Program-made: the position numbers and the translations under genes
From: Nitrospira sp.
GTDB taxonomy: Bacteria > Nitrospirota > Nitrospiria > Nitrospirales > Nitrospiraceae
Length of the DNA stretch: 64,000 bases
Reading direction: 5' to 3'
Assembly: GCA_041742455.1 (NCBI GenBank)
Contig: JBGSIO010000145.1
Location: 9,335-73,334 of the forward strand
The notes under the pieces: generated by a model
What the model was told of the DNA's origin: nothing
What the model saw: only the letters and a program-made list of their open reading frames with translations
Databases searched by the model: none
Part shown: one piece after another, positions 1,377 through 24,858 of the stretch
Numbering within the stretch: position 1 is the first letter of the stretch
Layout: every line of letters starts with the position of its first letter

Positions 1377-2417
1377 TTACTTTTCTCCCCCACCTAACAC
1401 CACATGAAACGTCAGATCGGCGTCGACTCGGCGAACTTTAACTGCAACCTCTTGGCCTGGGGCGGTGCGCTCGATAAGATAGTTTTTCAACTGGGCACCA
1501 TCCACAATTTCCGTATTCTCAATTGCCAGCAAGATATCGTGCTTTTGAATACCTGCCGTCTTCGCCGGCTCCGCGACATCCTTCACCGCCATGCGCAACC
1601 TCGTCCCATCTTTCACCGACGTCATATGGATCCCCAGTTTCGAGAACAGAAGCGGCTTCCCTGAAAGAGCGGCTTGGACGATACGCTCGGCGAGGCTTCC
1701 CGGAATGGCAAAAGCCATGCGGCTACAGTATGCCTGGGTCTCTTCTTTATCCGTTTGAATGACAGCATGTAGAATACCGACAACTTCTCCTTGGGCATTG
1801 AACAGTCCACCTCCGGAGTTTCCACTGCAGGCCGAAAGGTCTGCCTGAATCAGTCGAGTATCGACGGTTTGCAGGAAAGTATTGGTGTTGCCGAGCCTCC
1901 CAAAGGCCATCGTCGGCCCCCAGCCAAGCGGATAACCGACCGTGAAGACCTCCATTCCCGGTAAAACGTCCTCCGTCGAAAATGATGTCTCAGCCTGCAG
2001 TTTAGAGCGATGCTGTTCGACAATCCGATACACGACCGCATCCATAAATGCGCTATCCCCCACGAGGTCGGCGGAAAGCTCATGGAAATCATGCGTCAGT
2101 AGGCGGATCTGTTTCTGAATGATCGTCCCTCCCGAGAGATCATGCTTTTCCGCGGCATGTCTTGCCGTAATCACATAGCCATCTCGTAGGTGAAACCCGG
2201 TTCCACGGACGGCAATTTTTCCGGGCCTTTCCGGCATGCGCTGGTCCTGAGTCTCCGCCAGAATTCCCACCGTCACTTGTTTTGCCCGAAGAAATGCGTC
2301 CTGGCTGAGCGGCGTGACTTCAGCTCTGAGCTCGAGACTTGGCACCAAGGTCGCAACACCCAGGAGAAACGCGAATAGGCCCATACACCGAACCGGCACA
2401 GAGACGAGATTACTCAT
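1377..2417 (-). CDS. Exported trypsin-like serine protease with C-terminal PDZ domain (HtrA-like)
   Basis: Signal peptide; triad TARH / D / GNSGG; PDZ-like C-terminus (AGIQKHDILLAI). Confidence 0.9.
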   Translation of the reverse strand: MSNLVSVPVRCMGLFAFLLGVATLVPSLELRAEVTPLSQDAFLRAKQVTVGILAETQDQRMPERPGKIAVRGTGFHLRDGYVITARHAAEKHDLSGGTIIQKQIRLLTHDFHELSADLVGDSAFMDAVVYRIVEQHRSKLQAETSFSTEDVLPGMEVFTVGYPLGWGPTMAFGRLGNTNTFLQTVDTRLIQADLSACSGNSGGGLFNAQGEVVGILHAVIQTDKEETQAYCSRMAFAIPGSLAERIVQAALSGKPLLFSKLGIHMTSVKDGTRLRMAVKDVAEPAKTAGIQKHDILLAIENTEIVDGAQLKNYLIERTAPGQEVAVKVRRVDADLTFHVVLGGGEK

Positions 2418-2633
2418 TCGACAATCCTTTCAAACGGTCCTTCATCATGGACCACAATGAAATAGAATCAGCTATTATTCTCCCTGAAATTTTGCCAGCA
2501 TACCGCATCACTCTTGTTCAATTCAGCCCTCATGAAAGCGCATCGAGGCTCTCTGCCTCCCTTGTAAGCCGTGGACCCTGAGCTTATAGTCTCACACAAA
2601 ACGAGTCCTCATGAACATCCTGGACACCGCTTG

Positions 2634-3533
2634 ATGCCGAACCGTTGCACGTCGTCTCTACTCTCCCTAATTCTCCTTTTCATCATGCCATGCCCTACGA
2701 TGGCAGCGTCTGAATCAAAACCCACTCCGGAACTGGCCAAGCATTTGATTCGGATCGCTGGACTGGCTCAACCATCCCCGATGGTCACCATTCCTGCCGG
2801 ATCATTTTTGCTCGGTTCCAAGAGAGTCGATGGTGATCCATATGGAAAGTGGACACAGTTCGATGATACAGAACTCCCTCAGCAACAGGTCTGGTTGGAT
2901 GACTACGAGATCGATCGTGAGGAAGTCAGCCTCGGAGAATATCTCTCCTATCTTCAGAAGAAAAAGCTGTACCCCTCTACTGATTTGCAGAAACTCATCT
3001 GGCATCTTATCACCATCCATTTCGTTTCAGACCAGACTTTGACCCGATGGCCTGCGCTCTATGTCACATGGGCAGAGGCACAGAGCCTCTGTGGGACAAA
3101 GCGCGCAAGGCTTCCGACGGAAGCCGAATGGGAAAAGGCTGCACGCGGTTCTGCGGGAAACCTCTACCCATGGGGCGAAGCGGCTCCTACCTCCACTCTC
3201 GCCATGTTTGGGCAGCATCATGTTCATGAAATCCCCATTCTGGCTGCCGTCGATTCACATGATGAAGGGAAGAGCCCCTATGGCCTTCACCATATGGCAG
3301 GAAATGTGGCCGAATGGGTACAGGACTGGTTCGGTTTCGACTACTATGCCTATATGCCGGAGCGTAATCCGCCTGGCCCATCCGCAGGGCGCTACAAAGG
3401 CGTTCGCGGAGGCTCCTGGAAAAGTAAGCGAGTGATGCTCCGATCGGCGACCAGAGGCGGAGCGGCTCCAGATCAACGTTCGGCAACCATCGGGTTTCGA
3501 TGCGCACGATCATCGACTTCTCCGCTCCCGTAG
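2634..3533 (+). CDS. Exported FGE-sulfatase (SUMF1)-fold protein 1; ORF track start 2571, more likely ATG 2634
   Basis: RLPTEAEWEKAARG, YPWG, MAGNVAEW, RGGSW, GFRCA; no catalytic FGE CxxxxC. Confidence 0.9.
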   Translation: MPNRCTSSLLSLILLFIMPCPTMAASESKPTPELAKHLIRIAGLAQPSPMVTIPAGSFLLGSKRVDGDPYGKWTQFDDTELPQQQVWLDDYEIDREEVSLGEYLSYLQKKKLYPSTDLQKLIWHLITIHFVSDQTLTRWPALYVTWAEAQSLCGTKRARLPTEAEWEKAARGSAGNLYPWGEAAPTSTLAMFGQHHVHEIPILAAVDSHDEGKSPYGLHHMAGNVAEWVQDWFGFDYYAYMPERNPPGPSAGRYKGVRGGSWKSKRVMLRSATRGGAAPDQRSATIGFRCARSSTSPLP

Positions 3534-3634
3534 GGATGAGCCCTCTACTCGACACCACTCCGCAGAATATCCACACAAAGCTGCCGAGGGCTGGTGAGGG
3601 AAATTCACTGATTCTTATGGTAGGATCTTGCCCG

Positions 3635-4225
3635 ATGCGTCAGCTCTGTTGGATATTGGTGTTTGTATGGAGTGGGCTGCTGTTTGGGCACCAAGCTTCA
3701 GCCCTGGAGTTTACAGCTGATCAGGTGACTAAAATCGACGGCAAGTTGCATAAATCCTATATCTATTACCGTGATGCGATGTGGCGGATCGAACACCATA
3801 GCACGGGACCCGTCAACGTCAGCATCGTGCGGAAGGACAAACAGATCGTCTGGCTTTTACTGTCAAGAATGAAACACTTCAAGACCATTCCCTACAGCCC
3901 TGACCATGACTTGAGGGTGGGTGTGCAGATGGAGGGAGAAGTTTCGCGGCAGGAGATCGGTTCGGAAGTACGCGAAGGACATCCCACGGTGCTTTATGAG
4001 GTCACGACGAAGCAAGGGGAGCGAGTCGATGCCTATTACCAATGGGTTGCCACGGATATCCGGTTCCCCATGAAACTTGCCAAGAAGGACGGTAGCTGGA
4101 TTGTCGAGTATCAACACGTAAAAATGCGCTCTGTTTCAGACTACCTCTTTAACTTACCTGTGAACTTTCAGCCGCTGGAAGCATTTGACACGCCGGAGCC
4201 CAAACAGAACGGGCCAACGATGTGA
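3635..4225 (+). CDS. Exported LolA-like/DUF4412-like beta-rich protein 1; likely start 3635
   Basis: Signal peptide ending ASA-LEF; beta-strand pattern; clear similarity to the ORF at 7574-8209. Family assignment is from recall. Confidence 0.7.
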   Translation: MRQLCWILVFVWSGLLFGHQASALEFTADQVTKIDGKLHKSYIYYRDAMWRIEHHSTGPVNVSIVRKDKQIVWLLLSRMKHFKTIPYSPDHDLRVGVQMEGEVSRQEIGSEVREGHPTVLYEVTTKQGERVDAYYQWVATDIRFPMKLAKKDGSWIVEYQHVKMRSVSDYLFNLPVNFQPLEAFDTPEPKQNGPTM

Positions 4226-4245
4226 TACACGAAGGAGGAGGGATC

Positions 4246-5157
4246 GTGCGAGTTTATCGGATTGCCTTAGGCATGACACTAACGGGACTAATCGCTGTGG
4301 GGGGAGCACTTGCGCTGGACGTAGCCGATGTTGTTCGGCAGTGGACTCCTGAAGGAAAACGACTGGCGGAGGAGCGAGCCAAGCTTTCGGCGCATGACGA
4401 AATGATCATGATTCCTGCCGGCGAGTTTTTGATGGGAAGCGACAAAAAAGTTGATCGCAACGCGTACCAAGCCGAACTCCCGCAGCACAAAGTCTATCTG
4501 GACGCTTACGAAATCGACAAGTTTGAAGTCACGACGGTACAATTTCTGAAATATGTCCTGGCTCATGATCTGCCGCCTCTGATCGACTGGCAGTATGACG
4601 GCGGAAACTTCCAGGAAACGATGTCGAATCATCCCGTCATGCATATATCCTGGACTGATGCCGATGACTACTGTCGCTGGGCAGGCAAACGCCTCCCAAC
4701 CGAAGCAGAATGGGAAAAAGCTGCGCGTGGGGAAGATGGACGTATCTATCCTTGGGGCAATCAGATGGCTGGATTGTCGAGAGCGAACTTCGGACGGACT
4801 GGCTTGTCAGGCCCGGTACGAGATCGCCCAGAGCGCCTCTTGCTCTATCCGCCGATTATCTCTGTCGACAAGTACGACAATGCTGTGAGTCCATACGGGG
4901 CCTTTCAGATGTCCGGTAATGTGGCCGAATGGGTTGCCGATTGGTATGACTCAAAATACTATGCGACGGCACCCGATCGGAATCCAAAGGGACCGGAGAA
5001 GGGAACTCAGCGGAGCTTCCGCGGCGGCAGCTGGATCGACAGCACCCCAAGCGTACGAACCGCGCAACGCAACGGGACAGACCCCAACACAAAGATGAAT
5101 TGGCTCGGCTTCCGTTGTGCACGAGATGTGAAGATGTCACCAGAAGCCGAGAACTAA
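4246..5157 (+). CDS. Exported FGE-sulfatase-fold protein 2; likely GTG start 4246
   Basis: Strong RBS (GAAGGAGG) upstream; RLPTEAEWEKAARG, MSGNVAEW, GFRCA. Confidence 0.9.
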   Translation: MRVYRIALGMTLTGLIAVGGALALDVADVVRQWTPEGKRLAEERAKLSAHDEMIMIPAGEFLMGSDKKVDRNAYQAELPQHKVYLDAYEIDKFEVTTVQFLKYVLAHDLPPLIDWQYDGGNFQETMSNHPVMHISWTDADDYCRWAGKRLPTEAEWEKAARGEDGRIYPWGNQMAGLSRANFGRTGLSGPVRDRPERLLLYPPIISVDKYDNAVSPYGAFQMSGNVAEWVADWYDSKYYATAPDRNPKGPEKGTQRSFRGGSWIDSTPSVRTAQRNGTDPNTKMNWLGFRCARDVKMSPEAEN

Positions 5158-5277
5158 ACAGCCGCTGTATCGTCGTATCACAGCAAAACGGTACAGATGA
5201 GCTGGGGCTGCTGGCGCACGACGTGATCATCTGAGCACGTTCGGAAGGGTCACGGATTGTGAGTGAGTGTCCGTTGA

Positions 5278-6123
5278 TTATTTCAACGGCGCATCGGCTG
5301 CACACCGAAACCCTGTCGACTCATTGCGCATCATTGGATCGCTCTCTACGCGGGTAAAGATACGGACGGTGGGCGTTTCGTTTTGCCATCCTGCGCCACG
5401 AATGACCTTCTTTGAACCAGTTTTTGGACCTTGAGGGTTCTTCTGCGGGCTCTTCTCATAATACTGAGCGTCATACCAGTCATTGACCCACTCCCAGACG
5501 TTACCGGCCATGTCGTATACGCCAAATGGACTTTTGCCTGCCTCATAACTTCCAACAGGCATGAGGGTCTTCTCTCCAATCCATCGTTGATTGTAATTGA
5601 GATGCTTCGCCGTCGGTTCCACATTCCCCCATGGGAACCGTCTATCGGACGTTCCTTTGGCAGCCTTTTCCCACTCTGCTTCCGTAGGGAGCCGTTTGCC
5701 AGCCCATCTGCAGTACGCTTCTGCGTCAAACCAATCAACGTTGATCACAGGCCGATCGACAAGGGAGTCTGTGATGCTGTCCCCTTGCCACAGATTTCGC
5801 GTTGGATTTTTGGGGTTCTGTGGTACACGATGCCCGGTAGACTTGACAAAGGCTAAATATAATCCATTCGTCACTTCATACTTATCGATCGCGAACGTGT
5901 CGACAAACACGTCATGACGCGGATATTCATCCCGACCCCCGTCTCGATCTCCATCGGGTACTCCCATTGGAAACGAGCCGGCCGGAACCATGATCATCGG
6001 GGCACCATCCTTGGCGGCTAGGAACTCCTCTGGATCGTGAGCAGATCGGTCATCGGCGAATGAACTGGACAGACCAAGCACAAGACTCCACAGAACCGAG
6101 TAAACCACACATCGCACAAGCAT
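5278..6123 (-). CDS. Exported FGE-sulfatase-fold protein 3
   Basis: Signal peptide; RLPTEAEWEKAAKG, MAGNVWEW, GFRCA. Confidence 0.9.
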   Translation of the reverse strand: MLVRCVVYSVLWSLVLGLSSSFADDRSAHDPEEFLAAKDGAPMIMVPAGSFPMGVPDGDRDGGRDEYPRHDVFVDTFAIDKYEVTNGLYLAFVKSTGHRVPQNPKNPTRNLWQGDSITDSLVDRPVINVDWFDAEAYCRWAGKRLPTEAEWEKAAKGTSDRRFPWGNVEPTAKHLNYNQRWIGEKTLMPVGSYEAGKSPFGVYDMAGNVWEWVNDWYDAQYYEKSPQKNPQGPKTGSKKVIRGAGWQNETPTVRIFTRVESDPMMRNESTGFRCAADAPLK

Positions 6124-6211
6124 CGCACACGCTCCTTCCGGGAAGTCAAAGGAAAATTGATCGTATCACACCACTGACGAGCGATGCCGAAACCAGACCG
6201 CAATTTTACAC

Positions 6212-7570
6212 CTATTGGCTCGGTGCAGTGACTGTCAACAGTGCACCCCCTGCCGTAGCTCGAACGGCATCATCCTCGTCATGCAGATTTTGCTTGAACA
6301 ACTCCGTCGCACGCGCGCCCTCGACCTTCGCGATCGATCGGATCGCTGCAATCCTTACACGAGGGACAGTGTCCTGTACCAGCAGCATCAACGCCGATCG
6401 TGCCGGCTCTCGATTTGCCTGTCCCGCATGCCCCAAGGCTCGTGCCACGGCAGCACGAACCGCCGGCTCTTTCGTATTGATGAGCGTTCGAACCGAGCCG
6501 GCTACGATTTCATACCGTTCATTGAGCTCGAGCAGCGCACCGATCACAAACGCCCTCACCGCGGAGTCGCGGTCATCGAGCGCCTTCATCAGAGCCGACG
6601 GTGCGTCCGAACCCTGCATCTTGCCTAAACTCACCGCCGCAGCAATTCGAACAGGAGTGAGTGGATCCACCAGAAGTCGCGTCAATACGGGTACAGCTTG
6701 CGCAGATGGCATATGGCCAAACCCTGTCGCGGCAGCTCCTCGCACTGATGGTTGCTTGTGTTGGCTCGCTTCGATCAGGATGGGATACACGCTTGAGGAT
6801 GGTTGCACCACTAATGCGCGAATTGCCGATGTTCGTTCATCTGGATTCGGCGCTTTCGCATATCGCACCAGCAGATCACACGCCTTTGGACGTTTCAGAT
6901 GACAGAGAACCTCGGCTGCCGCCACACGCACCCGTACCTCCGGGTCCTTAAGCAGCGGCTCAACGAGCGAGACAACCGACACATCGTCTGACTTCGCAAA
7001 CCCCTTGAGTACTGCCTCCTTTACGAGCACGGCTTGATCCCCAAGGGCCTGCCTGAACTTTGGCGAGCGGCGTCCGGCGTCCAGCTTGGCAAACCCTTCG
7101 GCTGCCAAAGCTCTGACTAGACCAGATCCGTCATTGAGGCCCTCTTCGAAAAACGGAATAGCATCAGGACTCTGCCACTCTTTCAGAGCCGTATACGCCG
7201 CTCCACGCATCTGCTCTCGCATGTCCTTCGTAAGGACCACAATGAATCCGATGGCCACCTCCCGAAGAATCACCCCATCATCTTGCTGTAATGACTGCGC
7301 CAGCTTGTCATATTCCATGAGGGCATCTTTGGGGTTGCCAAGCCTCACCAACGTTCGGACTTTGAGTCGGCGAGTGTCCGGTAGGGCGGAGGTCTCTGTG
7401 TCAAGTTTGGCCAACTCCTCAAAAGCCTTTTGGTACTCCGCGTTGTCGTACAACGCTTGGATCTTCTGAAGGTCGGACTGCGTCCCGCCACCTGCCGGTT
7501 CGAAGATGAGAAGAAGACACGCGAGCGGGAATAGGACCGACACAGCTCGTCGAATAAACAACGCGATCAT
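6212..7570 (-). CDS. Predicted exported TPR-like plus HEAT-repeat protein
   Basis: N-terminal hydrophobic signal; repeated L.D....VR..AA..LG units. Confidence 0.85.
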   Translation of the reverse strand: MIALFIRRAVSVLFPLACLLLIFEPAGGGTQSDLQKIQALYDNAEYQKAFEELAKLDTETSALPDTRRLKVRTLVRLGNPKDALMEYDKLAQSLQQDDGVILREVAIGFIVVLTKDMREQMRGAAYTALKEWQSPDAIPFFEEGLNDGSGLVRALAAEGFAKLDAGRRSPKFRQALGDQAVLVKEAVLKGFAKSDDVSVVSLVEPLLKDPEVRVRVAAAEVLCHLKRPKACDLLVRYAKAPNPDERTSAIRALVVQPSSSVYPILIEASQHKQPSVRGAAATGFGHMPSAQAVPVLTRLLVDPLTPVRIAAAVSLGKMQGSDAPSALMKALDDRDSAVRAFVIGALLELNERYEIVAGSVRTLINTKEPAVRAAVARALGHAGQANREPARSALMLLVQDTVPRVRIAAIRSIAKVEGARATELFKQNLHDEDDAVRATAGGALLTVTAPSQ

Positions 7571-7573
7571 CCT

Positions 7574-8209
7574 CTACTCCACCCTCCTCTGATTGGCCAC
7601 ACTCGGCCGCTTTCTATAGCCTGGTGGCTCTTCGAAATAGATGCTGGGTTGTGCCGACATACGTATCCGTTCATACTCGAACGACCAATCACGGTCCTGG
7701 CTGACCAACTTAAGTACGATCCCAGTCTCTGCATCGACCCATTCGTAGAATCGTTCAAGACGTCCGTGGCGTTCAGTTTGAACGTCGAACAACCGTGCAG
7801 TTCGACCAGCTACCTCGTCATCTCCGACAGAGGTCCTCTGAGTTTCCCCAACCAATTGAGGATGGGTTAGGAAAACATCTTCGGTCAATGGCGTAACCAA
7901 TAATTCCTTTCGCTGCGGAAGGACATACCAGATTTCCGCGACATCCGGCCTGATGATTTCAATGGCGGCGAAGCCAAGCTCGGTTCGAATAGCATACGTA
8001 TACTCCAACCTGAGCCAAGCACCCTTGGCAAACACTTGTGCCCGATACTGTTTCCCATTCACCCGTTTGACGAGCGTGCCTGAAAATTCCGGCTCTGAGG
8101 GAAGACTGTCGATGGCTGTTGAACTGGAGATCGGCCAACATAGCACGCCGACACAAATGGACGTACACACCACCAAGCTGCAGGCTTTCCTCGCAGCGCA
8201 GAGAAGCAT
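7574..8209 (-). CDS. Exported LolA-like/DUF4412-like protein 2
   Basis: Signal peptide; paralog of 3635-4225 (EF...YEWV...LKL...W..EY...F..P). Confidence 0.7.
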   Translation of the reverse strand: MLLCAARKACSLVVCTSICVGVLCWPISSSTAIDSLPSEPEFSGTLVKRVNGKQYRAQVFAKGAWLRLEYTYAIRTELGFAAIEIIRPDVAEIWYVLPQRKELLVTPLTEDVFLTHPQLVGETQRTSVGDDEVAGRTARLFDVQTERHGRLERFYEWVDAETGIVLKLVSQDRDWSFEYERIRMSAQPSIYFEEPPGYRKRPSVANQRRVE

Positions 8210-8215
8210 CGGTCG

Positions 8216-9139
8216 TCAATGCTGGTGTTCGAGCAGTGGTTGGATATCGATGGAGTATCCCAACGATTCAAGACCGAATCGTGGGTTGTCCATGACTTTA
8301 TATGCCGTTCGACTTCCCTTCGGAGCAGGCACTGAGAGCTGCTCGACGAGTTTTCCATCCGGTTGCACCACGACGGATTTTGTTGTGCCTGGTCCTGTCT
8401 GTGGATGCCACACCACCAACTGATATGTACCAGGTGGAATGCCGTCGATCTTAAACCTCCCCTGAGCGTCGGTCAGAGCATAATAGGGATTGTTGACGGC
8501 CATGGCCCAACTTTCCATATAGGCGTGAAATCCACATTGCATATAGAAGGTACGCCGGCCCTTATTCAGATAGATCGGGCCGACCAGCGATTTGCCGGGA
8601 GCATGGTTATGCAACGCATGGAGATCTCCCCGCCGATGCTGATGGTTCATCACGAGCGGTGTGTTGAACAATACACGAGCGCCCGCCTCCGGCGATGTTT
8701 CATACCCTTGTATGTCGTGCATAACGGGATCCATATTGATCACCTCGACTGCATGCCCGTTCCGGACGACCGTCATGAACGGCTGGAACATGCAATCGCG
8801 TGCTTCGATCAATGGAACAGACACCTCGAAAGGTTTCCCGGCTTCGACTCCTTCCAGAAGCACAATGGCATCCTTCAATCCTCCCTGATGGCCCACGACA
8901 AAGTCATGGAGCAAGCGCCACCCACGACCGTTGGAAATTCGGCCGCAATAGGCAGGGTCAGGAAAAGTAACGAGATTGAACCCTTTTGGCTCAGGCACCG
9001 GTCCGTCGAGTGCGATCGTGCCTTCTATCGTTCCGCTATGCTCAACCTCGACGACTTCATAGGCGTAACCAGGTACAATCCCCATCGATAGGGCGAGAAC
9101 TCCGATTCCAAACGCGAAGGACGTACTTCTTGTGCTCAA
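8216..9139 (-). CDS. Exported cupredoxin-type protein embedded in a carboxypeptidase-regulatory-like beta-sandwich; predicted type-1 Cu site
   Basis: Signal peptide; DPVMHDI and MQCGFHAYMESW (CxxHxxM); His-rich insert HQHRRGDLHALHNH. Confidence 0.8.
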   Translation of the reverse strand: MSTRSTSFAFGIGVLALSMGIVPGYAYEVVEVEHSGTIEGTIALDGPVPEPKGFNLVTFPDPAYCGRISNGRGWRLLHDFVVGHQGGLKDAIVLLEGVEAGKPFEVSVPLIEARDCMFQPFMTVVRNGHAVEVINMDPVMHDIQGYETSPEAGARVLFNTPLVMNHQHRRGDLHALHNHAPGKSLVGPIYLNKGRRTFYMQCGFHAYMESWAMAVNNPYYALTDAQGRFKIDGIPPGTYQLVVWHPQTGPGTTKSVVVQPDGKLVEQLSVPAPKGSRTAYKVMDNPRFGLESLGYSIDIQPLLEHQH

Positions 9140-9163
9140 TTTCTTTTCCTCTTCCCGAGATAT

Positions 9164-10099
9164 TCAGTGGCGCTGTTTCTCGATCATCGGATCAATTTCT
9201 TTCTTGGTTTCCTCGGTCACGTTGAACCGGTTGTACGCATGATCAAGCACCTCGTTGGCGTAGAGTCGGCCAGTCGGGGCTGCGACCACCAGTTGAGTAT
9301 CGACCACCCCTTTCGGACCGATCGTCACTATCTGTTCGGTGGTACTCCGGACATAGGGATGCCACACCACGAGCTTGTACGTCCCAGGCGGCACATCAGT
9401 GAGGGTGAACCTCCCCTGCTCATCCGTCTTGGCAAAGTAGGGATTCGTGACGGCAACCCCCCAACTCTCCATATAGGCGTGAAACCCGCATTGCATGACG
9501 AACACCCGCCGGCCCTTGCTCAGGTTGACCAATTGTTTCGTCGGCGCACCGGCCATATGTTTATGATACATCCCCGCGTCACTGCGATCTTTCAGATCCC
9601 GAGGATGGGCCGGGTTCATCGGAAGGGGGACGTTGAATAATACCCGCGGGCCGAGATGTGACGTTTCGTACGCTTGAATGTCGTGCATGACTGGGTCCAT
9701 GTTGACGACCGTCACCGGTTGATTGTCTCTTACCACCGTTGTGAAGGGGAGAAAGAGACAATCTTTTGCCTCAATTTTCCGTGCGCCATCATCCTCGAAG
9801 GGCTTCCCCGTCTCAACCCCTTCGAGGTACACAAGGACCTCTCGAAACTCACCCTCAGGGCCAATATTGAAAGGTTGCAGGATGCGCCAGCCTTCGCCGT
9901 CAGAAATACGACCGCAATAAAACTGGTCGGGCAGCGTCGTAAGATTGTAACCTTTGGGCTTGGGCACCTGCCCCTCCAGCTTCACGGTCCCGGTGAGGGT
10001 CCCGCCATCTGAGACCGTCACTTCCTTGTAGGCATAGGCCGGCGACCCGATAGAGAAGGTCGTCACTACCGCAATTAACGCATATCGTGTCAGGTTCAT
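9164..10099 (-). CDS. Paralogous exported cupredoxin-type protein; true start ATG 10099
   Basis: GGAGGAGGAG RBS; same DPVMHDI and MQCGFHAYMESW motifs. Confidence 0.8.
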   Translation of the reverse strand: MNLTRYALIAVVTTFSIGSPAYAYKEVTVSDGGTLTGTVKLEGQVPKPKGYNLTTLPDQFYCGRISDGEGWRILQPFNIGPEGEFREVLVYLEGVETGKPFEDDGARKIEAKDCLFLPFTTVVRDNQPVTVVNMDPVMHDIQAYETSHLGPRVLFNVPLPMNPAHPRDLKDRSDAGMYHKHMAGAPTKQLVNLSKGRRVFVMQCGFHAYMESWGVAVTNPYFAKTDEQGRFTLTDVPPGTYKLVVWHPYVRSTTEQIVTIGPKGVVDTQLVVAAPTGRLYANEVLDHAYNRFNVTEETKKEIDPMIEKQRH

Positions 10100-10211
10100 T
10101 GGTCTGCTCCTCCTCCCATCTCTCTCGCACAGACGTGAACAGTGGGATCTTGCATACATCTGATTGATTATACCGAGTTCCGCTCAGGATTGCAGGACTG
10201 TGGATCCTGAT

Positions 10212-10248
10212 AAAAAACAGGGGAGCCGCACATTCTGTACGGCTCCCC
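10212..10248 (-). terminator. Rho-independent terminator after multicopper oxidase 1
   Basis: Stem GGGGAGCCG/CGGCTCCCC followed by a U-tract on the minus strand (A-tract 10212-10217). Confidence 0.8.
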
Positions 10249-10279
10249 TCCTCTTTTCTCCGCAGAATTCCTGAGCGAC

Positions 10280-15109: not shown

Positions 15110-15338
15110 GGACCGACCTCCTTAAGAAAATAAGTACGAGATCGACTGAGTCCGCTGCTCAGTCCGTCTCGGATGCTCCGCCCTAATTTGAAGAATAAGA
15201 AGACAAAGCAATATCGATTGCACAGAAAAGCCCTAAAAAAGAGACGTACTCATCTTCAAACGATAAGGACTGCAAGATACTGAACTTCACATTGAGTGTC
15301 AAGGTTCTGCAGGTGGAGATCGCTCTCTAGACGGGCAA

Positions 15339-16016
15339 TTAATGTGCTACGGGCGACTTCCGATTGGCCGTGTTCTGGAGATCCATCTCCAACACCATTG
15401 CACTCTCACGGTTCTTGGGGTCCGTCTTGATGGGCATCCGGTCCACCATTAACTTGATCACAGGAAGCGCCACGATAACAGGGGTCTTATCCGAGGCATT
15501 GGAATGGAGCGCAATGCGAATATTTTTAGGTCGATCGCTCGGGGTGACTTCCGCGACAAGCTCCTTCCCCATGAACCCGACGAGCAATCCGCTGCCGTCG
15601 GAGAGCTTATGGATTTCGTAATCATTGTCGGTTGACGCGGTCCGATCCAAGATCAGATCCGGACTTTGTGTCACCAGCGCCAACCCCAGGTGTGTCGGCG
15701 CAATAAAGCCATAGCTGCCCGTCGGTGCGTCCGAGAACCGACCTCTGCCGACCCGCAGCTCGGTGACGCCGTTCTTCGTTCTCATCTGGCGCCGCAGCTC
15801 AACCTCACTGCCGGCGGTTTCAATCACGACAGCTGCGGGCGCAGCCTTTTGTATTGGCAACGTCTCCAGTTTTTCCCCTGAAGCAGTCTCGATACAGTTC
15901 GGGACGCCGCTCAGACTCATGAATATGAGCACCAAGACGACCATGGAGTGCTGACTCGGCCTGATGCAAGCGCTATGGGACGCGATATGGATATGACGCA
16001 TGGTTTCTCCGGGCAA
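15339..16016 (-). CDS. Hypothetical, probably exported protein (start uncertain)
   Basis: 225-aa ORF co-oriented with the cluster; hydrophobic N-terminal segment; no motif recognised. Confidence 0.7.
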   Translation of the reverse strand: MPGETMRHIHIASHSACIRPSQHSMVVLVLIFMSLSGVPNCIETASGEKLETLPIQKAAPAAVVIETAGSEVELRRQMRTKNGVTELRVGRGRFSDAPTGSYGFIAPTHLGLALVTQSPDLILDRTASTDNDYEIHKLSDGSGLLVGFMGKELVAEVTPSDRPKNIRIALHSNASDKTPVIVALPVIKLMVDRMPIKTDPKNRESAMVLEMDLQNTANRKSPVAH

Positions 16017-16078
16017 GCGACGCTACCTATTCTGGATTCTAAAAAAGCCGACAGGGAAAAAGCAAACGCGGTAGGATC

Positions 16079-16972
16079 TCACGGACGCTCGACCCATCGT
16101 GCAACCTCTGAGGTCGCGCATCGAAAGCCAGTCAGATAGCTCTGGCGATCGGGCGGTGCCGCATTGCGGCCCGCGGACCGTGCGACCTCGGGGTCTTCAT
16201 TCCATGAGCCGCCGCGAAAAACCTTGAGCGCGCCAGTCGCTGGCCCTTGCGGATTTAGTTCGCCACTATGCCGATAGTATTCAGGCTCGAACCAGTCCGA
16301 CACCCATTCACTCACGTTTCCTGCCATCTGATACACACCGTACGGACTGACACCCTTGTCGTAACGATTGATGTTGGCCAGCGGGGGATACTTGAACCCC
16401 CGTTTCGAGCCTGAGTGTGCGATGTTGCTCTTGATCCAACCGGCTGGTTCGTCGCCCCACGGAAAGATCCGCCCATCCATTCCACGCGCGGCTTTCTCCC
16501 ACTCCGCTTCCGTCGGCAAGCGCTTGCCCGCCCACCGACAGTACGCATCGGCTTCATACCAGCTGACGTTTATTACCGGATGCAGGGCACTTTTTTCTGG
16601 AAATGGACGGTCTCGCCAAAATTTCGGCCACTCCATACCCATCCCGAGCACGAAGCGCAAATACTCGACGTTCGAGACCTCGTACCGGTCGATCCGAAAC
16701 CTATCAAGATAGACGCGACGTTGCGGCAGCTCCTGTGGACCGGCAGCACGATCCTTGTGCGGATCGCTTCCCATGAGAAATTCTCCGGCAGGGACTACTA
16801 CCATCCCGCTGGGCACCTCCAGCACCGCCAGGCGTTCCGGTTCGTCGAGCGGAGTCCAGAGTGGAGGCTGCATTGAGGACTCGTGATCCGCCAAACTGGG
16901 ACCGACACAGAACAGCGCCATCGCGCACATCTGAACGAGCGCCAAGACTGCGCGCGTGATCCATCCACTCAT
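16079..16972 (-). CDS. Exported FGE-sulfatase-fold protein 4
   Basis: Signal peptide; RLPTEAEWEKAARG, MAGNVSEW, GFRCA. Confidence 0.9.
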   Translation of the reverse strand: MSGWITRAVLALVQMCAMALFCVGPSLADHESSMQPPLWTPLDEPERLAVLEVPSGMVVVPAGEFLMGSDPHKDRAAGPQELPQRRVYLDRFRIDRYEVSNVEYLRFVLGMGMEWPKFWRDRPFPEKSALHPVINVSWYEADAYCRWAGKRLPTEAEWEKAARGMDGRIFPWGDEPAGWIKSNIAHSGSKRGFKYPPLANINRYDKGVSPYGVYQMAGNVSEWVSDWFEPEYYRHSGELNPQGPATGALKVFRGGSWNEDPEVARSAGRNAAPPDRQSYLTGFRCATSEVARWVERP

Positions 16973-17029
16973 GACAGAATCATCTCAGCCATACCAATCA
17001 ACCAGACACTGAGTTACTGAATCACATAA

Positions 17030-17064
17030 CAAAAGGGGGAGCCGTTCTCACCTACGACTCCCCC
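17030..17064 (-). terminator. Rho-independent terminator after multicopper oxidase 2, homologous to the one after oxidase 1
   Basis: Stem GGGGGAGCCGT/ACGACTCCCCC with a minus-strand U-tract. Confidence 0.75.
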
Positions 17065-17093
17065 TCCTGTTTTTGAGGCCCTGTCCGATCGGT

Positions 17094-20000
17094 CTATTTC
17101 ATGGCCGTCGGCATAACCTGAGGCTGCGGTGTCTCATCCGCCCGCTTAGCCCCCACACCACCCGCACCGAGCGGTTGGATCCGCGTATCACCGACAGGCA
17201 ACACACGGAGGTAGCCCCATTGTCCTGATTGCGTGTAGGGCAGTCGTTGATTCGACCAGACGAAGTCTCCAACTTGACGATACGGGCCGCCCGCACCGCC
17301 ACGTAGGAACACATCCAGTATTTCAGAGCCGGCATACTCGACCACACTGATCATGTCGGCTCCTGGCATATAGGGCTCGATCGGCCACTCGTGACCTTCG
17401 ATCCCAAACATGCCGTTCTGCTCACTGTTGGCGCCGATCAAGTGAATCCGAATCGGATCACCGGCATGGGCCTCGATCAACGGCGTCACCGGATCTTCGG
17501 GCTTCTCCACGACGCAGGGCTGGAAGATCTTGCTCAAAGAGCAACCTTGATTCTCGCGGAACAGATACGGCTCGGCCCGATAATTGACCGAGGTCAGGCC
17601 CGCGACATTTTGTACGTACGGCATGAATGAGGTCCCAATGATGTTGTCCTCATCCTGGAAGAAGAGGGCCACATCACGGTAGTTCCGCTTTCCAACGTTC
17701 TCAGGAAGGCTGGCATCAACGATCACGTCAGCCCTCCAGGCGTTCTTCTGAGAAATATCGGCTCCGCTCACAGGATCCCGGTACTGAGACCCTCGTGGAC
17801 CGACGATGACCGCGCCGTACAATCCATTGCGTGGATTGACGACGATGTTCCCTCCATCCCACACCAGTGATGTCGTCTCCTTATTGGCCGGATGCGCGTA
17901 ATAGGTGTAGGCGCGCGCTTCGCCTGGGGCCACGGTCTGATCACCACCGTTGTTGCCGACATTAAGCCCCTGGCTATCCTTCGGATCGAAGGCCAAGCCT
18001 GGCGCAAAGAACGACGCTCGGCTCGCCTTCATTTTGTTCTTGAGATTGACCTTGATACAGTCGCCAAGGTTGACCCGCAACGTCAGTGGGTGCGGGGTCT
18101 TGCCGCCGGAAACCGTCATCGCCTCTTCCTCGAGCGCGAAGATCTTGCCCTCCGGTATGGTCAGTTCGATCTTCCGCTCGAAATCCACCTCGATGACGTC
18201 CGGCGATTTCGGATTGAGCTTCATGGGCCGATCGACCGCCACGACGTTAAAGCTCTTCACCGGTGCATCCGCCGGGCAGACGGAACCAGGAGTGGCCGGA
18301 ATACTGAGGGGATTTGTGCCCTTCGGTAACGGCTTCAGATCGGGCACCTCCTTATCGAGCACCCGCACGATCCCCCAGCCACCTTCGGCAAAATGCGAGG
18401 TACGCCCGTTGAAGTGGATATAGTCGCCCGGCATTCCCTGAAATCCGCCGGCCTTGGTCACAAGATCGTATCGTTCAGCAATCCCGACGTGAATCGAGTT
18501 CTTCCGGTTGGCATCTGCCGCATACCGTTCGGTAAGGAACGTATGCCCAGAGATCGTCCAGACGTGGGATTCATTCATCAGCTGATGCAGCAAACGGAAC
18601 ACCATCGTATCGCCTGTATAGGCCCTCAGCAGAGGGGTATCCGGATCCCCATGAATCGCGCTGCTGAATAGTTTCGAGGTATCCGGATTATTCGCCAACC
18701 GTTGGGCAAACGGTTCCGCGCGGAAATTGAATCCACTGCCGGTCGTATGTGTGCCCCCATTGAGATATTTGTTCGGGGCGTTCAGGATCTTTTCCGGCAT
18801 CTGGAACGACACGGTTTTGCCTGCTTCCAGCGCAACTTCTACCGGTTGTCCAGGTGGATTTCCCGCCTCAATCACGTTGACCGTGTGCGGCACCGTGTCG
18901 TGGATCGAGACCATCAACTCGCGGAAGCTGCCGCTCACACCGGCTCCGATCGGTTCGCTGCTGTGAATGTCCGCGATCGGACCGCTGTAGACCAACTTGC
19001 CGTTCTTCGGATCGTGATAGGTCGATCCGTACGGTTCCACGATCGTGACACCGAATCCTCCGTGTGGCCAGGTGGTAGCGCCGAACGCATGGTCATGCCA
19101 GAACACAGTCCCCATATCGACATCGACCCACCACCGATACCGGACGAACTCCGGCGAGACCAAGTCATTGGCCGGATGATGGTGCTTGAGTGGTTTGAAG
19201 AATATAATCTGATCGCCCTTGATCTCTTTAATGCGGGCGACTTCTTGACAGCTCTTGTCTCGCGGGAGAGAGGCCGTCGGATCGTTGCCTTTCTCCAAAC
19301 AATCCATACCCACCATGACCTCAGTGTTCACATGAAACTTGGTGGCACCGGGAGCCATCTGGATTTTGACCGAAGTGGCACCGGCCTTTACGGGGCTCGC
19401 TAACTTTCCCACCATCGGCGCAGGCAAGCCATGCTTGGTCTTCTTGCCCCACATGGTGAAGGGTCGAACAGACATTTCGTATTCGAACCCGGAGATAACA
19501 CCGTCCGAGTTTCCGGTATCGAACTGGAAAAAATGGGGATGGATGTTGATCTTCGACGACTGGAAATTTGTGTAATCGTCGTCATCCCACTCGCTCGTCA
19601 GAATGACATCGACACAGTCATACACGTTGGCACGAATAACCGCCGGTACTTTGAGGTCATCATCTCCTCTCGTCAACCGTTCTTCCTCGTGCAACACGTA
19701 GATCAACCCGTCCTTGTCGACGATAGGCGGTTCATTGCCTTGCTTCTTTGCCAGCGTAATCGGCAAGCGGATGAAGTGAATGTTGTAATGTTTGCGGTTC
19801 GCATTCTCCGGACAGAGACTCCACCGTCCCTGCTCGCCGGGCATGGCCGGCTCTGACGTTCTCTCACCCTTGGCGTCCTGGTGAATCGGCTCTAGCCACG
19901 GTGCTCCGTTGTGATTGGCTGAGAACGGAACACGTTTCCCAAAATGTGGCTTGAACAGCGGCCATGCCATTTTCCCCGTCGTCGGGTCGAATAGAATCGC

Positions 20001-22022
20001 CGGTCTTGTGCTGTCATCCCACTTCGCCGCCCACACATATTTGGGGTTTTGGGCCGTACTTTCGCGTTCACCCCGCGCGATGTTGCCGTCCCACTTCCAG
20101 TCCCACACGGTCGCATCATACGCGAGAATTTGGCCCTTCTCGTCGTCCGTATGCCCGGGCTTTCCCTGCGCAGGCACGAACATCTCGACCCAGTCCTTGA
20201 TGTTCACGATCGCCGGATTCGATTTCCAATTGGTCTTCTGACTCTTGTCCACAATTTTGAATGTTTTGCCGAACCAATCAAGAGTCGTCCCGATCAGCTT
20301 GTCGGACGAAACACCCAACTTCATCCGGCCAGCACGATCCGGCAGCTCCCGGAGATCCGGCATGCTGTCCGTATGGGCCGCCCCAACTTGGAGCGTATTG
20401 TAAAACCGGCCGTAGCCCCACATCCCTGCGACATAGTGGTGCGCGACATGGCAGTGATAGAGGAATTCGCCGGCCAGATGCTGACAGCCGCCACCGCCAC
20501 ATTCAGGTTCGAGGTCCAACGCTTCAGATGGACCGATGACTTCGACGTCCACACGGTCGGACTTCGTTCGGACGACCGGATATTTTACCGGACCATCCTG
20601 ACCCATCGCCCACATATTGTTTGGTTCGGTGCCAGGACTGCGCTGCCAGCGAATCGATCCGCTATGCGGATGGTGGGAATGGAATACTTCCGACCCACCA
20701 TGGACGAGCCGCCACTTGACCGGATCACCCAGATAGCCGCGGGCAATCGTCGTCGGCGTATCACCGAATGTGTAGGAGCTATAGGCCAACGATTCGTCCT
20801 CGAATCCGAAATATTCGTGTTGCAAATGCATTTGATCGATGCCGAACGGCTCACTGCGGTAATTGATCGCCCGCCCGCCGGGACGATAGGCATCCGTCAG
20901 CGGGTCGCGCTGAGGCAAGAAATCTCCCTTCTTGTTCAGGGGACGAAAGGCTTCATCTCCGACTTCGTGGTAAAACAACACGAACTCGCGAAAATCAGGG
21001 CCCGACGCATTATCGATATTCACCTGCCAGCCGCTCCTGACCTCCGGAGCAGGCCCTCCGCTTCCGAGCGCATCAAGATACCTGGCGCCTTGCGGCTCCA
21101 CGATAAAGGCCCCGAAGAGACCCAGGACCGTGAGTTCGCGATCGTGGCTATACGAGTGGAATTGACGGACGCCCTCCTGCATCTTCGGATGGATGTACCA
21201 TTCGAATTCTTGAGCCTTACCGGGCGCCACAATGGAATCGGGATTGGTCGTCGTGGCTGGTTTACCGGTAGCGCTCACAACCATGCTCGACGCTTGGATG
21301 AAGAGGCTCCCATCTTCCCCTTCCATTTGATTGCGCAGGGTCATCTTGACACATTCGCCCTGATTCGCCCTGAGGACCAAGGGTTGAATTACGTCGCCCT
21401 GTAGGCCAGTGCTGACAGCCCCCGGTTCAAAGCCGTCCTTTTCACGAGCTTCTCTGTTCTTGGCCTCTTCGGCTCGAGTTTTCTCCAGATCCTCAGTCAA
21501 CACGTACATATAGCCCGGATAAAAATCGAGCCAGCGGTTCAATGTGATTTCGATGTTGATCATCGACACATCAAACTGTTTGCTCGGCACTCCCGCGGGA
21601 CATTTCCCTCCCGAAGTCAAGACCGGCTCACCTTTGTTCGAATCCGTCATCAGAAGGAAACTACTGCCGTCCTGCCCCATGTACTGGTGCATCATCGACA
21701 TATTGTTGAAGGCACCCGACGTCTGCTGAGCCTTGGCGTCTTTTTGGGCCTGTTGTTCCAACTTTTCCATCAACCGATGGTGCTGCATCTCCATCTTTTG
21801 CGCGTTGTCGGCGCGGCCCTCGATGGCGTTCTCCACCACGGTCTGACCCTTGAGCTGTTGGGTCCAGCCTGGCATCGCCACCGGTGTGGCGTGACCTCCC
21901 TGGGACGAATGATTGGGTTCTGCGGCAAACACCGGTGCTGCCACAACACTTCCTGCGATCAGGACAGCGTGCAACATCAGCAACCGTCGCTGCCAACGCT
22001 GTAGTTGAAAGAGCGATCTCAT
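17094..22022 (-). CDS. Large (1,642 aa) exported multicopper oxidase, paralog of 10280-15109
   Basis: HSHHPHS, HCHVAHHYVAGM, IHPHF and FWHDH; collinear with oxidase 1 along its whole length. Confidence 0.9.
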   Translation of the reverse strand: MRSLFQLQRWQRRLLMLHAVLIAGSVVAAPVFAAEPNHSSQGGHATPVAMPGWTQQLKGQTVVENAIEGRADNAQKMEMQHHRLMEKLEQQAQKDAKAQQTSGAFNNMSMMHQYMGQDGSSFLLMTDSNKGEPVLTSGGKCPAGVPSKQFDVSMINIEITLNRWLDFYPGYMYVLTEDLEKTRAEEAKNREAREKDGFEPGAVSTGLQGDVIQPLVLRANQGECVKMTLRNQMEGEDGSLFIQASSMVVSATGKPATTTNPDSIVAPGKAQEFEWYIHPKMQEGVRQFHSYSHDRELTVLGLFGAFIVEPQGARYLDALGSGGPAPEVRSGWQVNIDNASGPDFREFVLFYHEVGDEAFRPLNKKGDFLPQRDPLTDAYRPGGRAINYRSEPFGIDQMHLQHEYFGFEDESLAYSSYTFGDTPTTIARGYLGDPVKWRLVHGGSEVFHSHHPHSGSIRWQRSPGTEPNNMWAMGQDGPVKYPVVRTKSDRVDVEVIGPSEALDLEPECGGGGCQHLAGEFLYHCHVAHHYVAGMWGYGRFYNTLQVGAAHTDSMPDLRELPDRAGRMKLGVSSDKLIGTTLDWFGKTFKIVDKSQKTNWKSNPAIVNIKDWVEMFVPAQGKPGHTDDEKGQILAYDATVWDWKWDGNIARGERESTAQNPKYVWAAKWDDSTRPAILFDPTTGKMAWPLFKPHFGKRVPFSANHNGAPWLEPIHQDAKGERTSEPAMPGEQGRWSLCPENANRKHYNIHFIRLPITLAKKQGNEPPIVDKDGLIYVLHEEERLTRGDDDLKVPAVIRANVYDCVDVILTSEWDDDDYTNFQSSKINIHPHFFQFDTGNSDGVISGFEYEMSVRPFTMWGKKTKHGLPAPMVGKLASPVKAGATSVKIQMAPGATKFHVNTEVMVGMDCLEKGNDPTASLPRDKSCQEVARIKEIKGDQIIFFKPLKHHHPANDLVSPEFVRYRWWVDVDMGTVFWHDHAFGATTWPHGGFGVTIVEPYGSTYHDPKNGKLVYSGPIADIHSSEPIGAGVSGSFRELMVSIHDTVPHTVNVIEAGNPPGQPVEVALEAGKTVSFQMPEKILNAPNKYLNGGTHTTGSGFNFRAEPFAQRLANNPDTSKLFSSAIHGDPDTPLLRAYTGDTMVFRLLHQLMNESHVWTISGHTFLTERYAADANRKNSIHVGIAERYDLVTKAGGFQGMPGDYIHFNGRTSHFAEGGWGIVRVLDKEVPDLKPLPKGTNPLSIPATPGSVCPADAPVKSFNVVAVDRPMKLNPKSPDVIEVDFERKIELTIPEGKIFALEEEAMTVSGGKTPHPLTLRVNLGDCIKVNLKNKMKASRASFFAPGLAFDPKDSQGLNVGNNGGDQTVAPGEARAYTYYAHPANKETTSLVWDGGNIVVNPRNGLYGAVIVGPRGSQYRDPVSGADISQKNAWRADVIVDASLPENVGKRNYRDVALFFQDEDNIIGTSFMPYVQNVAGLTSVNYRAEPYLFRENQGCSLSKIFQPCVVEKPEDPVTPLIEAHAGDPIRIHLIGANSEQNGMFGIEGHEWPIEPYMPGADMISVVEYAGSEILDVFLRGGAGGPYRQVGDFVWSNQRLPYTQSGQWGYLRVLPVGDTRIQPLGAGGVGAKRADETPQPQVMPTAMK

Positions 22023-22265: not shown

Positions 22266-22281
22266 AGCAATCACCATGCCG
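22266..22281 (-). promoter_or_regulatory. Sigma54-like promoter for oxidase 2
   Basis: Minus strand reads CGGCATGGTGATTGCT (GG-N10-GC); predicted +1 near 22255. Confidence 0.5.
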
Positions 22282-24854: not shown

Positions 24855-24858
24855 TACG

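Follow-up and report, generated by a model that had tools for sequence, protein, structure and literature searches.

A sub-lineage-specific island of exported proteins around two giant MnxG-family multicopper oxidases in Nitrospira

Nitrospira and Nitrospina perform most of the nitrite oxidation on Earth. A periplasmic multicopper oxidase (MCO) common to Nitrospina and Candidatus Nitrospira defluvii, resembling the Bacillus Mn oxidase, was described by Lücker et al. in 2013, who proposed a Mn(III)-based defense against reactive oxygen species (ROS) and reported cupredoxin-like genes in the nitrite oxidoreductase (NXR) cluster (PMC3578206). The Mnx complex of Bacillus sp. PL-12, a Mn(II)/Mn(III) oxidase made of MnxG and an MnxE3F3 ring (PDB 9bxa), contains a homologous six-domain MCO. 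In ocean metaproteomes, the Nitrospina MCO is the second most abundant Nitrospinae oxidoreductase in the Pacific (PMC9477243); mnxG-like genes are present in all Nitrospira metagenome-assembled genomes (MAGs) of a sand-filter study, Manganitrophaceae encode "two novel MCOs", and the MCO goes unmentioned in a comparative genomics study of Nitrospirales from 2025. This giant oxidase is among the most highly expressed genes or proteins of Nitrospira and Nitrospina, yet its function has been conjectural since 2013. Here, we report on a 64,000-nucleotide stretch (the window) on contig C145 of a Nitrospira MAG (3.85 Mb, 96% complete), in which 13 consecutive genes at positions 1377–22022 form an island around two giant MCOs, MCO1 and MCO2. 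The island is a lineage-specific fusion, found in one sub-lineage, of modules that are conserved in Nitrospira. The oxidase itself was reported as early as 2013; no description appears to exist of its modular accessory set, of the fused island, or of the control by sigma-54 and a leader RNA that is specific to the MCOs.

The 13 genes were defined from the open reading frame (ORF) listing and from Pfam and NCBIfam scans, and paralogy among the island proteins was tested by BLASTP. A hydrophobic N-terminal segment, i.e., a best 12-residue Kyte-Doolittle mean of at least 2.0 within the first ~60 residues, is present in 13 of 13 products; the flanking Sua5 (1.2) and Memo-like (0.8) proteins have no such segment by the same measure. 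The label exported is used here for this measure combined with a reading of the N-termini. An earlier note, made from the DNA letters of the window, had claimed about 13 consecutive proteins with signal peptides and repeated paralogous pairs, and both parts of that claim were confirmed.

1377–2417, minus strand: g1, HtrA/DegP-like serine protease with one PDZ domain (Trypsin_2 E 2e-19, PDZ_2 E 3e-10)
2571–3533 (probable start 2634), plus strand: g2, fold of the formylglycine-generating enzyme (FGE), signal-like N-terminus (Pfam FGE-sulfatase E 4e-44)
3500/3635–4225, plus strand: g3, paralogue of g7, signal-like N-terminus, no family (BLASTP against g7)
4222–5157, plus strand: g4, FGE-fold, signal-like N-terminus (Pfam FGE-sulfatase E 3e-58)
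5278–6123, minus strand: g5, FGE-fold without the catalytic cysteines (Pfam FGE-sulfatase E 2e-62)
6212–7570, minus strand: g6, HEAT-repeat protein, signal-like N-terminus (Pfam HEAT_2 E 5e-45)
7574–8209, minus strand: g7, beta-rich protein, signal-like N-terminus (weak MucB_RseB match, E 0.008)
8216–9139, minus strand: g8 (cupB of module A), cupredoxin plus Ig-like domain (fold and ligands)
9164–10099/10159, minus strand: g9, cupredoxin plus Ig-like domain (CarboxypepD_reg; 51% identity to g8, ligands)
10280–15109, minus strand: g10 (MCO1), six-domain MnxG-family MCO of 1609 aa (PDB 9bxa_A match)
15339–16016 (probable start 15944), minus strand: g11, orphan with signal-like N-terminus, no family
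16079–16972, minus strand: g12, FGE-fold without the catalytic cysteine pair (Pfam FGE-sulfatase E 1e-58)
17094–22022, minus strand: g13 (MCO2), six-domain MnxG-family MCO of 1642 aa (Pfam Cu-oxidase domains)

Module B consists of a sigma-54 promoter and a 76-nucleotide (nt) leader followed by MCO2 (g13), g12, and g11, and module A consists of MCO1 with a promoter candidate and a terminator, followed by the tight operon g9-g8, g7, g6, and perhaps g5. The add-on is formed by g2-g3-g4, an overlapping operon divergent from the rest, together with the HtrA-like g1. The module A order MCO1-cupA-cupB(g8)-g7-HEAT(-cupC), in which cupA, cupB, and cupC denote three cupredoxin subfamilies, is found in N. 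moscoviensis, N. defluvii, most of 80 Nitrospira loci, and the family f2. Orthologues of g8 (60–94% identity) adjoin MCO1 across Nitrospira, g7 is kept after cupB in most Nitrospira loci, and orthologues of g6 (39–91% identity) lie downstream of g7 across Nitrospirales. Module B has its counterpart in N. moscoviensis, where MCO2 is followed by orthologues of g9 (NITMOv2_3986, directly downstream, 80%), g12 (80%), and a g4-like FGE-fold gene (78% identity), with a g3-like gene (44% identity) divergent upstream; the same MCO2-cup-FGE-FGE order occurs in N. defluvii and at least nine other genomes, and g12 orthologues come after MCO2 in both named species and in other genomes. A third MCO clade, branching more deeply (53–55% identity), forms tandem pairs with g2-like FGE-fold, cupredoxin, and g3-like genes; a g3 homologue (33% identity) sits between such a pair, and g2-like genes (49–61% identity) are located beside third-type MCOs, beside an MCO2-type gene of family f3, and beside an MCO of the sister order. 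In the sister-order genome G138 there are three MCO copies, two of which are trailed by two cupredoxin genes each, and one of these two also has an FGE-fold gene ahead. The accessory gene types are therefore co-conserved with giant MCOs in three paralogous modules, down to the sister order, which supports the association of accessory genes with the oxidases that had been claimed for this island.

It is the island as one ancestral unit that did not hold. In N. moscoviensis and N. defluvii, ~300 kb separate modules A and B; in the window's sub-lineage they have been joined and g1–g5 added, with g1 going together with the g2–g5 genes, g5 near MCO genes only in a sub-lineage, and the cupC orthologue kept at its ancestral site on contig C104. 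Homologues of g11 are found only in closely related Nitrospira loci, between the FGE-fold genes and MCO1. A single ancestral operon is ruled out, since the modules lie apart in N. moscoviensis and N. defluvii and the order varies among relatives; the island is a fusion that arose within a sub-lineage.

Several arrangements were observed besides. Of the four giant MCO paralogues in N. moscoviensis, two have no partner genes nearby (L086, L087); tandem third-type pairs occur in other Nitrospira (L104 and L105 in G041 and G002), and islands of three giant MCOs within ~33 kb occur in G057, G053, and G038. Downstream of the MCO2 module in N. moscoviensis (L085, 3748000–3767999) there are OMP-like, CopD/DUF4149-like, cytochrome c'-like, Pyr_redox_2, and CusB/HlyD-like genes, and in the window's genome these neighbors remain on contig C2:55459-67521 without MCO2. 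At 22658–23974 (minus strand), the window encodes a Memo/AmmeMemoRadiSam-B-like protein that lacks a signal peptide and is extended by ~140 aa at its N-terminus; its gene is located directly upstream of MCO2 in several relatives (L089–L092), along with the membrane-protein operon found here at 24087–30666.

The two giant MCOs are 66% identical over 1631 aa. By phmmer, g10 matches Bacillus MnxG (PDB 9bxa_A) at E 2.2e-74 and 254 bits in five stretches covering g10 residues 195–550 and 1061–1453, so that the kinship with MnxG proposed earlier is well founded. Please note that the NCBIfam MnxG equivalog (NF041487) is not passed, g10 scoring 132.3 and g13 106.9 bits against a cut-off of 3100; judged by these scores, g10 and g13 are predicted to be distant members of the MnxG family and not equivalogs. 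Weak NCBIfam matches were found to CopA-type MCOs and, for the N-terminal extension, to a His-rich family. In an alignment of 18 paralogues spanning three clades (A2), hhalign between segments showed six cupredoxin domains arranged as three odd/even two-domain units: residues 130–330 resemble 1230–1430 (probability 99.4) and pieces of 725–990 (93–96), and residues 330–560 resemble 1000–1230 (98.2) and 1430–1614 (96.5). Domain 2 is trailed by an insert of ~170 residues, and both MCOs carry a Met/His-rich N-terminal extension. The ligands invariant in 18/18 paralogues are, in domain 2, HSHHPH (H434/436/437/439), H510-C511-H512, H516, and M521 and, in domain 3, two HxH motifs (H811/H813 and H942/H944). 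This set predicts for each MCO one complete type-1 (T1) site and eight histidines for a trinuclear cluster, split between domains 2 and 3. An HIH at residue 228 of g10 was considered as a copper ligand and rejected, since it is not in g13 and hence not conserved.

MCO1 begins with a plain Sec-like signal. The N-terminus of g13 holds QRRLLML and its orthologues show arginine runs, so export of MCO2 by the twin-arginine (Tat) route is possible, and the MCO paralogues may use different export routes. Arginine-rich, twin-arginine-like N-termini were seen in MCO2 and in third-type MCOs alike (QRRLLML, RRKRRRT, RRRRQR; L081, L095, L104).

Of 61 good Nitrospirales genomes, 60 encode giant MCOs (1–5 copies each), and in a sample of Nitrospirota they were found in 26/121 genomes, all of the class Nitrospiria. 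Beyond the phylum, the homologues form 1812 clusters at 50% identity, among them proteins of Planctomycetota and Anaerolineae, and one Planctomycetota homologue (47% identity) bears a DUF3347 domain. MCO1 orthologues (79–97% identity) occur in 80 Nitrospira loci; the closest relatives of MCO1 are from uncultured Nitrospira (97% identity), N. moscoviensis (90%), and N. defluvii (86%), and the N. defluvii MCO2 is 88% identical to g13. In the maximum-likelihood tree, the MCO1, MCO2, and third-type clades are each separated with 100/100 support, g13 falls within the MCO2 clade (100/100), and the MCO1/MCO2 duplication is placed before the split of the Nitrospirales families. One further ORF of the window, 32486–37414 (plus strand), has 1642 aa as MCO2 does; a third MCO was ruled out there, and the ORF encodes an SF1 helicase with an MTES_1575-type nuclease in a lower-GC stretch.

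The small copper proteins of the island, read earlier as CxxHxxM cupredoxins, are supported as T1 cupredoxins by fold and ligand conservation. g8 and g9 are 51% identical to each other and have an amicyanin-type C-x2-H-x2-M ligand loop; H141, C202, H205, and M208 are invariant in 38 sequences from the three subfamilies (g8 being of the cupB type), and so are two additional cysteines. The AlphaFold model of g8 (pLDDT 77, pTM 0.74) gave as its top Foldseek hit a Nitrosopumilus cupredoxin (5fc9_A, E 7e-5, target TM-score 0.70), with amicyanin, plastocyanin, pseudoazurin, and auracyanin at probability 1.00. Curated profiles miss the copper domain of g8 and g9, Pfam matching only CarboxypepD_reg and fn3_3 in the C-terminal domain and NCBIfam nothing. 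The public records name g8-type proteins "carboxypeptidase regulatory-like", which overlooks the copper site and therefore needs correction. A homologue search with g8 returned only Nitrospira relatives at 80% identity or more and is uninformative on distant taxa. It is plausible that the cupredoxins serve as the MCOs' own electron carriers.

The four FGE-fold proteins (g2, g4, g5, and g12) share 37–45% identity (E 1e-52 to 8e-86); PF03781 matches them at E 4e-44 to 2e-62, and their best PDB relatives are FGEs (E 3e-37). In the alignment, the loop that holds both Cu(I)-binding cysteines of human FGE is replaced by NEDPEVA..R, and the C-terminal motif of g5, RGAGWQNETPTVR, has no Cys. A catalytic FGE role was considered for all four and is excluded, i.e., they cannot be formylglycine-generating enzymes because both Cu(I)-binding cysteines are missing. 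The only conserved cysteines among 79 Nitrospira paralogues are C145 and C285, outside the catalytic loop, and these probably form one disulfide; all else that is kept among these paralogues are residues of the fold. FGE-fold genes were also observed beside cupredoxin genes away from MCOs, at C2:61831-65273 and C104:12357-21633.

Regarding g3 and g7, their paralogy stands (25% identity over 202 aa, E 2e-20), and the LolA-like label once given to them is weakly supported: MucB_RseB matches 2 of 16 family members and DUF4412 one, all at E 0.008, and the family profile against the PDB gives RseB at E 0.55, ranked below OspA. They are possibly LolA/RseB-like. The orphan g11 has no Pfam or NCBIfam match. 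In the translation of g1, a GNSGG serine motif and an upstream ARHAA histidine are found together with the single PDZ domain.

Upstream of MCO2, two regulatory elements were identified.

22266–22281, minus strand: sigma-54-type -24/-12 promoter of MCO2, cGGCAtggtgaTTGCt (pattern match and conservation)
22177–22252, minus strand: 76-nt structured leader in the ~240-nt 5' untranslated region of MCO2 (alignment A4, 17 sequences)

Within the window, the count of sigma-54 patterns is not above chance, so the promoter is credible only through its conservation across species: the GGCA and TTGC boxes are kept in the upstream alignment of 17 distinct MCO2 orthologues, including those of N. moscoviensis and N. 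defluvii. MCO2 of N. moscoviensis has as neighbors a sigma-54 activator with no receiver domain recognizable by Pfam and a PAS-PAS histidine kinase; in the window's genome the activator orthologue is on contig C2. The leader begins ~15 nt past the -24/-12 box, is nearly invariant in sequence, and folds as a three-way junction of P1 (11 bp), P2 with the invariant loop GGACCGGCCUCC, and the hairpin P3. RNAalifold found 26 pairs in the 17 sequences, 4 of them with compensatory changes, and 98.6% of cells are paired in the leader versus 33–57% in slid controls. The compensatory changes fall in P1 and P3; P2 is invariant in the core set and compensated in divergent third-type copies. No Rfam 15 family reaches threshold for the leader, the best being ATPC at E 6.8. 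With a covariance model, one leader was found in the window's genome and 1–3 per genome in the family f1 relatives. In 1.64 Mb of loci, 24 of 24 matches immediately precede an MCO gene of the MCO2 or third type, and the forward-strand matches in genomes all do likewise; in the loci searched, the model found no leader before MCO1, before the additional paralogues of N. moscoviensis, or before the genes of f2, f3, or the sister order. From its conserved covarying structure and its fixed position before one gene family, we regard the leader as a cis-regulatory RNA. The CCGGCCUCC loop, which does not vary, has its complement in the equally invariant GGAGGCCG at the ribosome-binding site, and GGAGGCCGG occurs a second time at 22130–22138; the complementarity suggests that the CCGGCCUCC loop masks the ribosome-binding site.

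Expression was taken from the N. moscoviensis nitrite-fed chemostat of Mundinger et al. (2019), with 4391 coding sequences (PMC6606698, supplement), the transcript table being covered down to rank 855. The MCO2 orthologue NITMOv2_3987 ranks 19/4391 at 4464 reads per kilobase per million (RPKM) versus a median of 97.6, the cupC gene NITMOv2_3655 ranks 20, the MCO1 orthologue NITMOv2_3660, whose coordinates are exactly those of locus L016, ranks 53, and the g9 orthologue NITMOv2_3986 ranks 130.

Taken together, we favor a reading in which modules fused around MnxG-family MCOs carry out metal oxidation in a protective or homeostatic role, and we give this reading as a whole a probability of about 0.5. 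The MCOs would be periplasmic oxidases reducing O2 to water, with the T1 copper taking single electrons from a reduced metal ion; Mn(II) is favored by the MnxG homology, and Fe(II) or Cu(I) would be the alternatives. The amicyanin-type cupredoxins would be dedicated one-electron partners of the MCOs, the cysteine-less FGE-fold, g3/g7, and HEAT proteins would be non-catalytic binding, assembly, or scaffold subunits, and the g1 protease would handle turnover; the maturation factors and quality-control protease of the earlier note are no more than a guess. The role is probably ROS or O2 removal or the control of redox-active metals in the periplasm, and not energy conservation. MCO2 may be switched by its dedicated sigma-54 activator and, in translation, by the leader, whose invariant CCGGCCUCC loop could mask the GGAGGCCG ribosome-binding site. 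The suggestion that metal oxidation is tied to energy conservation is unsupported in the sequence, because the cluster encodes no membrane-bound, haem-binding, or quinone-linked product; an energy-conserving link could still run through the abundant cupredoxins to complexes encoded elsewhere.

Several points weigh against the metal-oxidizing, protective reading. No assay of any member of the Nitrospira/Nitrospina clade was found in the literature, the authors of the sand-filter Nitrospira study emphasize that the substrate of an MCO is poorly predicted by homology, and function is not transferable from the Pseudomonas enzyme because the NCBIfam MnxG score is 132 against a cut-off of 3100. By family assignment, no MnxE/MnxF-like partner is encoded in 1377–22022, every gene there belonging to another family or being the 225-aa orphan. 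The AlphaFold2 model of g10 residues 100–1299, built on the 18-sequence alignment, is unusable (mean pLDDT 49, pTM 0.39), so the copper-site geometry is inferred from sequence alone. The genome has ~16 FGE-fold and 7 cupredoxin paralogues, some of them paired far from any MCO, so that the cupredoxins, or something else, may be what the FGE-fold proteins serve. Two relatives without an MCO1-type gene keep g8-g7-g6 directly after module B (L091 and L092 in G057 and G029), and hence the cupredoxin, g7, and HEAT genes are not strictly dependent on MCO1. Masking of the ribosome-binding site has no support from covariation because both sequences are invariant. Very high constitutive transcription on nitrite exceeds what is expected of a stress or trace-metal enzyme. 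Finally, the cupA, cupB, g7-like, and HEAT genes between MCO1 and cupC in N. moscoviensis rank below 855 (PMC6606698), i.e., their transcripts are at least ~7-fold below that of MCO1, and a stoichiometric complex of these four with MCO1 is unlikely. The co-expression of oxidases and partners supposed earlier is thus seen for MCO2, cupC, MCO1, and the g9 orthologue, and not for these four. Two elements of module A are of note here.

10219–10249, minus strand: intrinsic terminator in the MCO1/g9 gap (14-bp stem with 9 G-C pairs and a T-run, terminator scan)
15274–15302, minus strand: sigma-70-like promoter candidate of MCO1 (TTGACA-17-TATCTT, 10/12 of the consensus, weak pattern match)

A strong terminator after g10 fits the lower N. 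moscoviensis transcripts downstream of MCO1, and it is possibly an attenuation point that sets the MCO-to-accessory transcript ratio.

If the electrons came not from a metal but from periplasmic NXR, they would pass through the T1 cupredoxins (cupC, g8, and g9) to the giant MCO and on to O2, as an overflow valve, an O2 scavenger, or respiratory protection. The ranks of MCO2, cupC, and MCO1 on nitrite only are in the range of respiratory genes, amicyanin-loop cupredoxins are classical dedicated electron shuttles, and the family is confined within the phylum to the aerobic class Nitrospiria. The Nitrospina MCO gene, moreover, is within a cluster of NXR and electron-carrier genes with cupredoxin-like genes (PMC3578206), and its peptides co-vary with NxrA in low-oxygen water (PMC9477243); in oxygenated South Pacific water, however, the Nitrospina MCO tracked catalase and not NxrA (PMC9477243). 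Given the known topology of Nitrospira NXR, nitrite oxidation and O2 reduction would both be periplasmic, so that proton release and uptake would cancel and no energy would be conserved by such a branch. There is also no NXR gene, cytochrome, or membrane protein in this cluster, and electron flow from cupredoxin to oxidase is putative for this MCO type. We consider this route unlikely, and it is the main rival of the metal-oxidizing reading.

A Cu or Fe homeostasis function like that of CueO, PcoA, or the ferroxidases is a rather improbable alternative, in which periplasmic Cu(I) or Fe(II) would be oxidized to protect or supply the metal-rich nitrite-oxidizing machinery, with the cupredoxin, FGE-fold, and g3/g7 proteins as metal carriers. 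Ceruloplasmin, the classical six-domain MCO, is a ferroxidase. Here, the Met/His-rich extension of both MCOs with its weak His-rich family match, the weak CopA-type NCBIfam matches, the CopD/DUF4149-like and CusB/HlyD-like genes after the N. moscoviensis MCO2 module, and the DUF3347 domain of the Planctomycetota homologue (47% identity) all point toward metal handling. However, the known cuprous oxidases are three-domain proteins of ~500 aa and copper-induced, whereas the transcription seen here reaches very high levels with no added metal stress; among solved relatives the Mn oxidase MnxG, and not CueO, comes closest, and Pfam scans of the window cluster found no CopA/CusA-type transporter or metal-responsive regulator. 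The weakest alternative, i.e., no functional unit at all but two MCO operons and unrelated exported proteins of expanded families (FGE-fold, cupredoxin, protease) juxtaposed by rearrangement, would suit the derived arrangement of the window (its modules are separated by ~300 kb in N. moscoviensis and N. defluvii), the cupC left behind on another contig, the differing gene order and content among close relatives, the 16 scattered FGE-fold paralogues, and the uneven transcript levels inside module A, but it is very improbable, because the same four types (giant MCO, cupredoxin, FGE-fold, and g3/g7-like) recur around three anciently diverged MCO clades and in the sister order, which chance does not explain, and 13/13 products have export signals where the flanking genes have none.

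Returning to the protective metal oxidase, a bolder extension can be pictured, which we take as a long shot: the leader would be a new riboswitch class sensing the oxidase's metal or a small molecule, and the modules would form a regulated redox branch of the periplasm that the cupredoxins connect to the respiratory chain of nitrite oxidizers. If it were true, the oxidation of Mn(II) or another metal would feed energy metabolism, or nitrite electrons would pass to O2, and the abundance of the oxidase in Nitrospira and in marine Nitrospina would be accounted for. What is in hand is that there are at least three old oxidase paralogue clades, each traveling with amicyanin-like cupredoxins, cysteine-less FGE-fold proteins, and g3/g7 proteins, and that two of these clades have a sigma-54 promoter and a structured leader RNA of their own. 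With leader, partners, and paralogue clades defined, the role of the oxidase is now testable, and two database names are corrected, i.e., the cupredoxins ("carboxypeptidase regulatory-like") and the FGE-fold proteins, which are not FGEs.

Compared with Bacillus MnxG, the Nitrospira MCOs likewise have the HCH/T1 motif in the second domain and not at the C-terminus, and in both systems the MCO has small accessory proteins encoded beside it (review, PMC13689576). The Nitrospira MCO, however, has ~400 extra residues in the Met/His-rich N-terminus and the domain 2/3 insert, and instead of homologues of MnxD/E/F its neighbors are two-domain cupredoxins, FGE-fold, g3/g7, and HEAT proteins. The Bacillus complex is located in the exosporium, whereas the Nitrospira MCO is predicted to be periplasmic in a Gram-negative chemolithoautotroph, with Mn oxidation putative here. 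The resemblance to MnxG and McoA of Pseudomonas putida GB-1 lies in the large exported MCOs with several paralogues per genome and copper-handling accessory genes in their operons. The P. putida mnxG and mcoA genes depend on sigma-54 and a dedicated activator (PMC13689576), and the -24/-12 box and neighboring activator here are the parallel. No structured leader is reported for the P. putida genes; in contrast to that system, there is no SCO1/SenC gene here, the activator has no receiver domain by Pfam, and the equivalog scores of only 132 and 107 bits are far from the 3100 cut-off.

In the NirK-NirV pair of denitrifiers, as here, the gene of a periplasmic copper enzyme from the cupredoxin superfamily lies beside that of an FGE-fold protein; NirV, which is listed as an uncharacterized member of the FGE family with probably a non-FGE function, was compared by description only. 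The partner here is a giant MCO and not a nitrite reductase, and there are four FGE-fold copies in the island and ~16 in the genome. Amicyanin, which serves methylamine dehydrogenase as its dedicated electron acceptor, shares with g8 and g9 the cupredoxin fold, the C-x2-H-x2-M loop, and a gene beside that of the enzyme; unlike amicyanin, g8 and g9 are extended at the N-terminus by beta structure, carry a variable His-rich insert ahead of the ligand loop, and end in an Ig-like CarboxypepD_reg domain and a disordered tail. The closest system of all is the "putative multicopper oxidase" of Nitrospina gracilis and Ca. N. defluvii (Lücker et al. 2013, PMC3578206), which is of the same protein family. 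It was described there as a single gene; the division into paralogue clades, the companions of the FGE-fold, g3/g7, and HEAT types, the fusion into an island, and the RNA leader are additions to that description.

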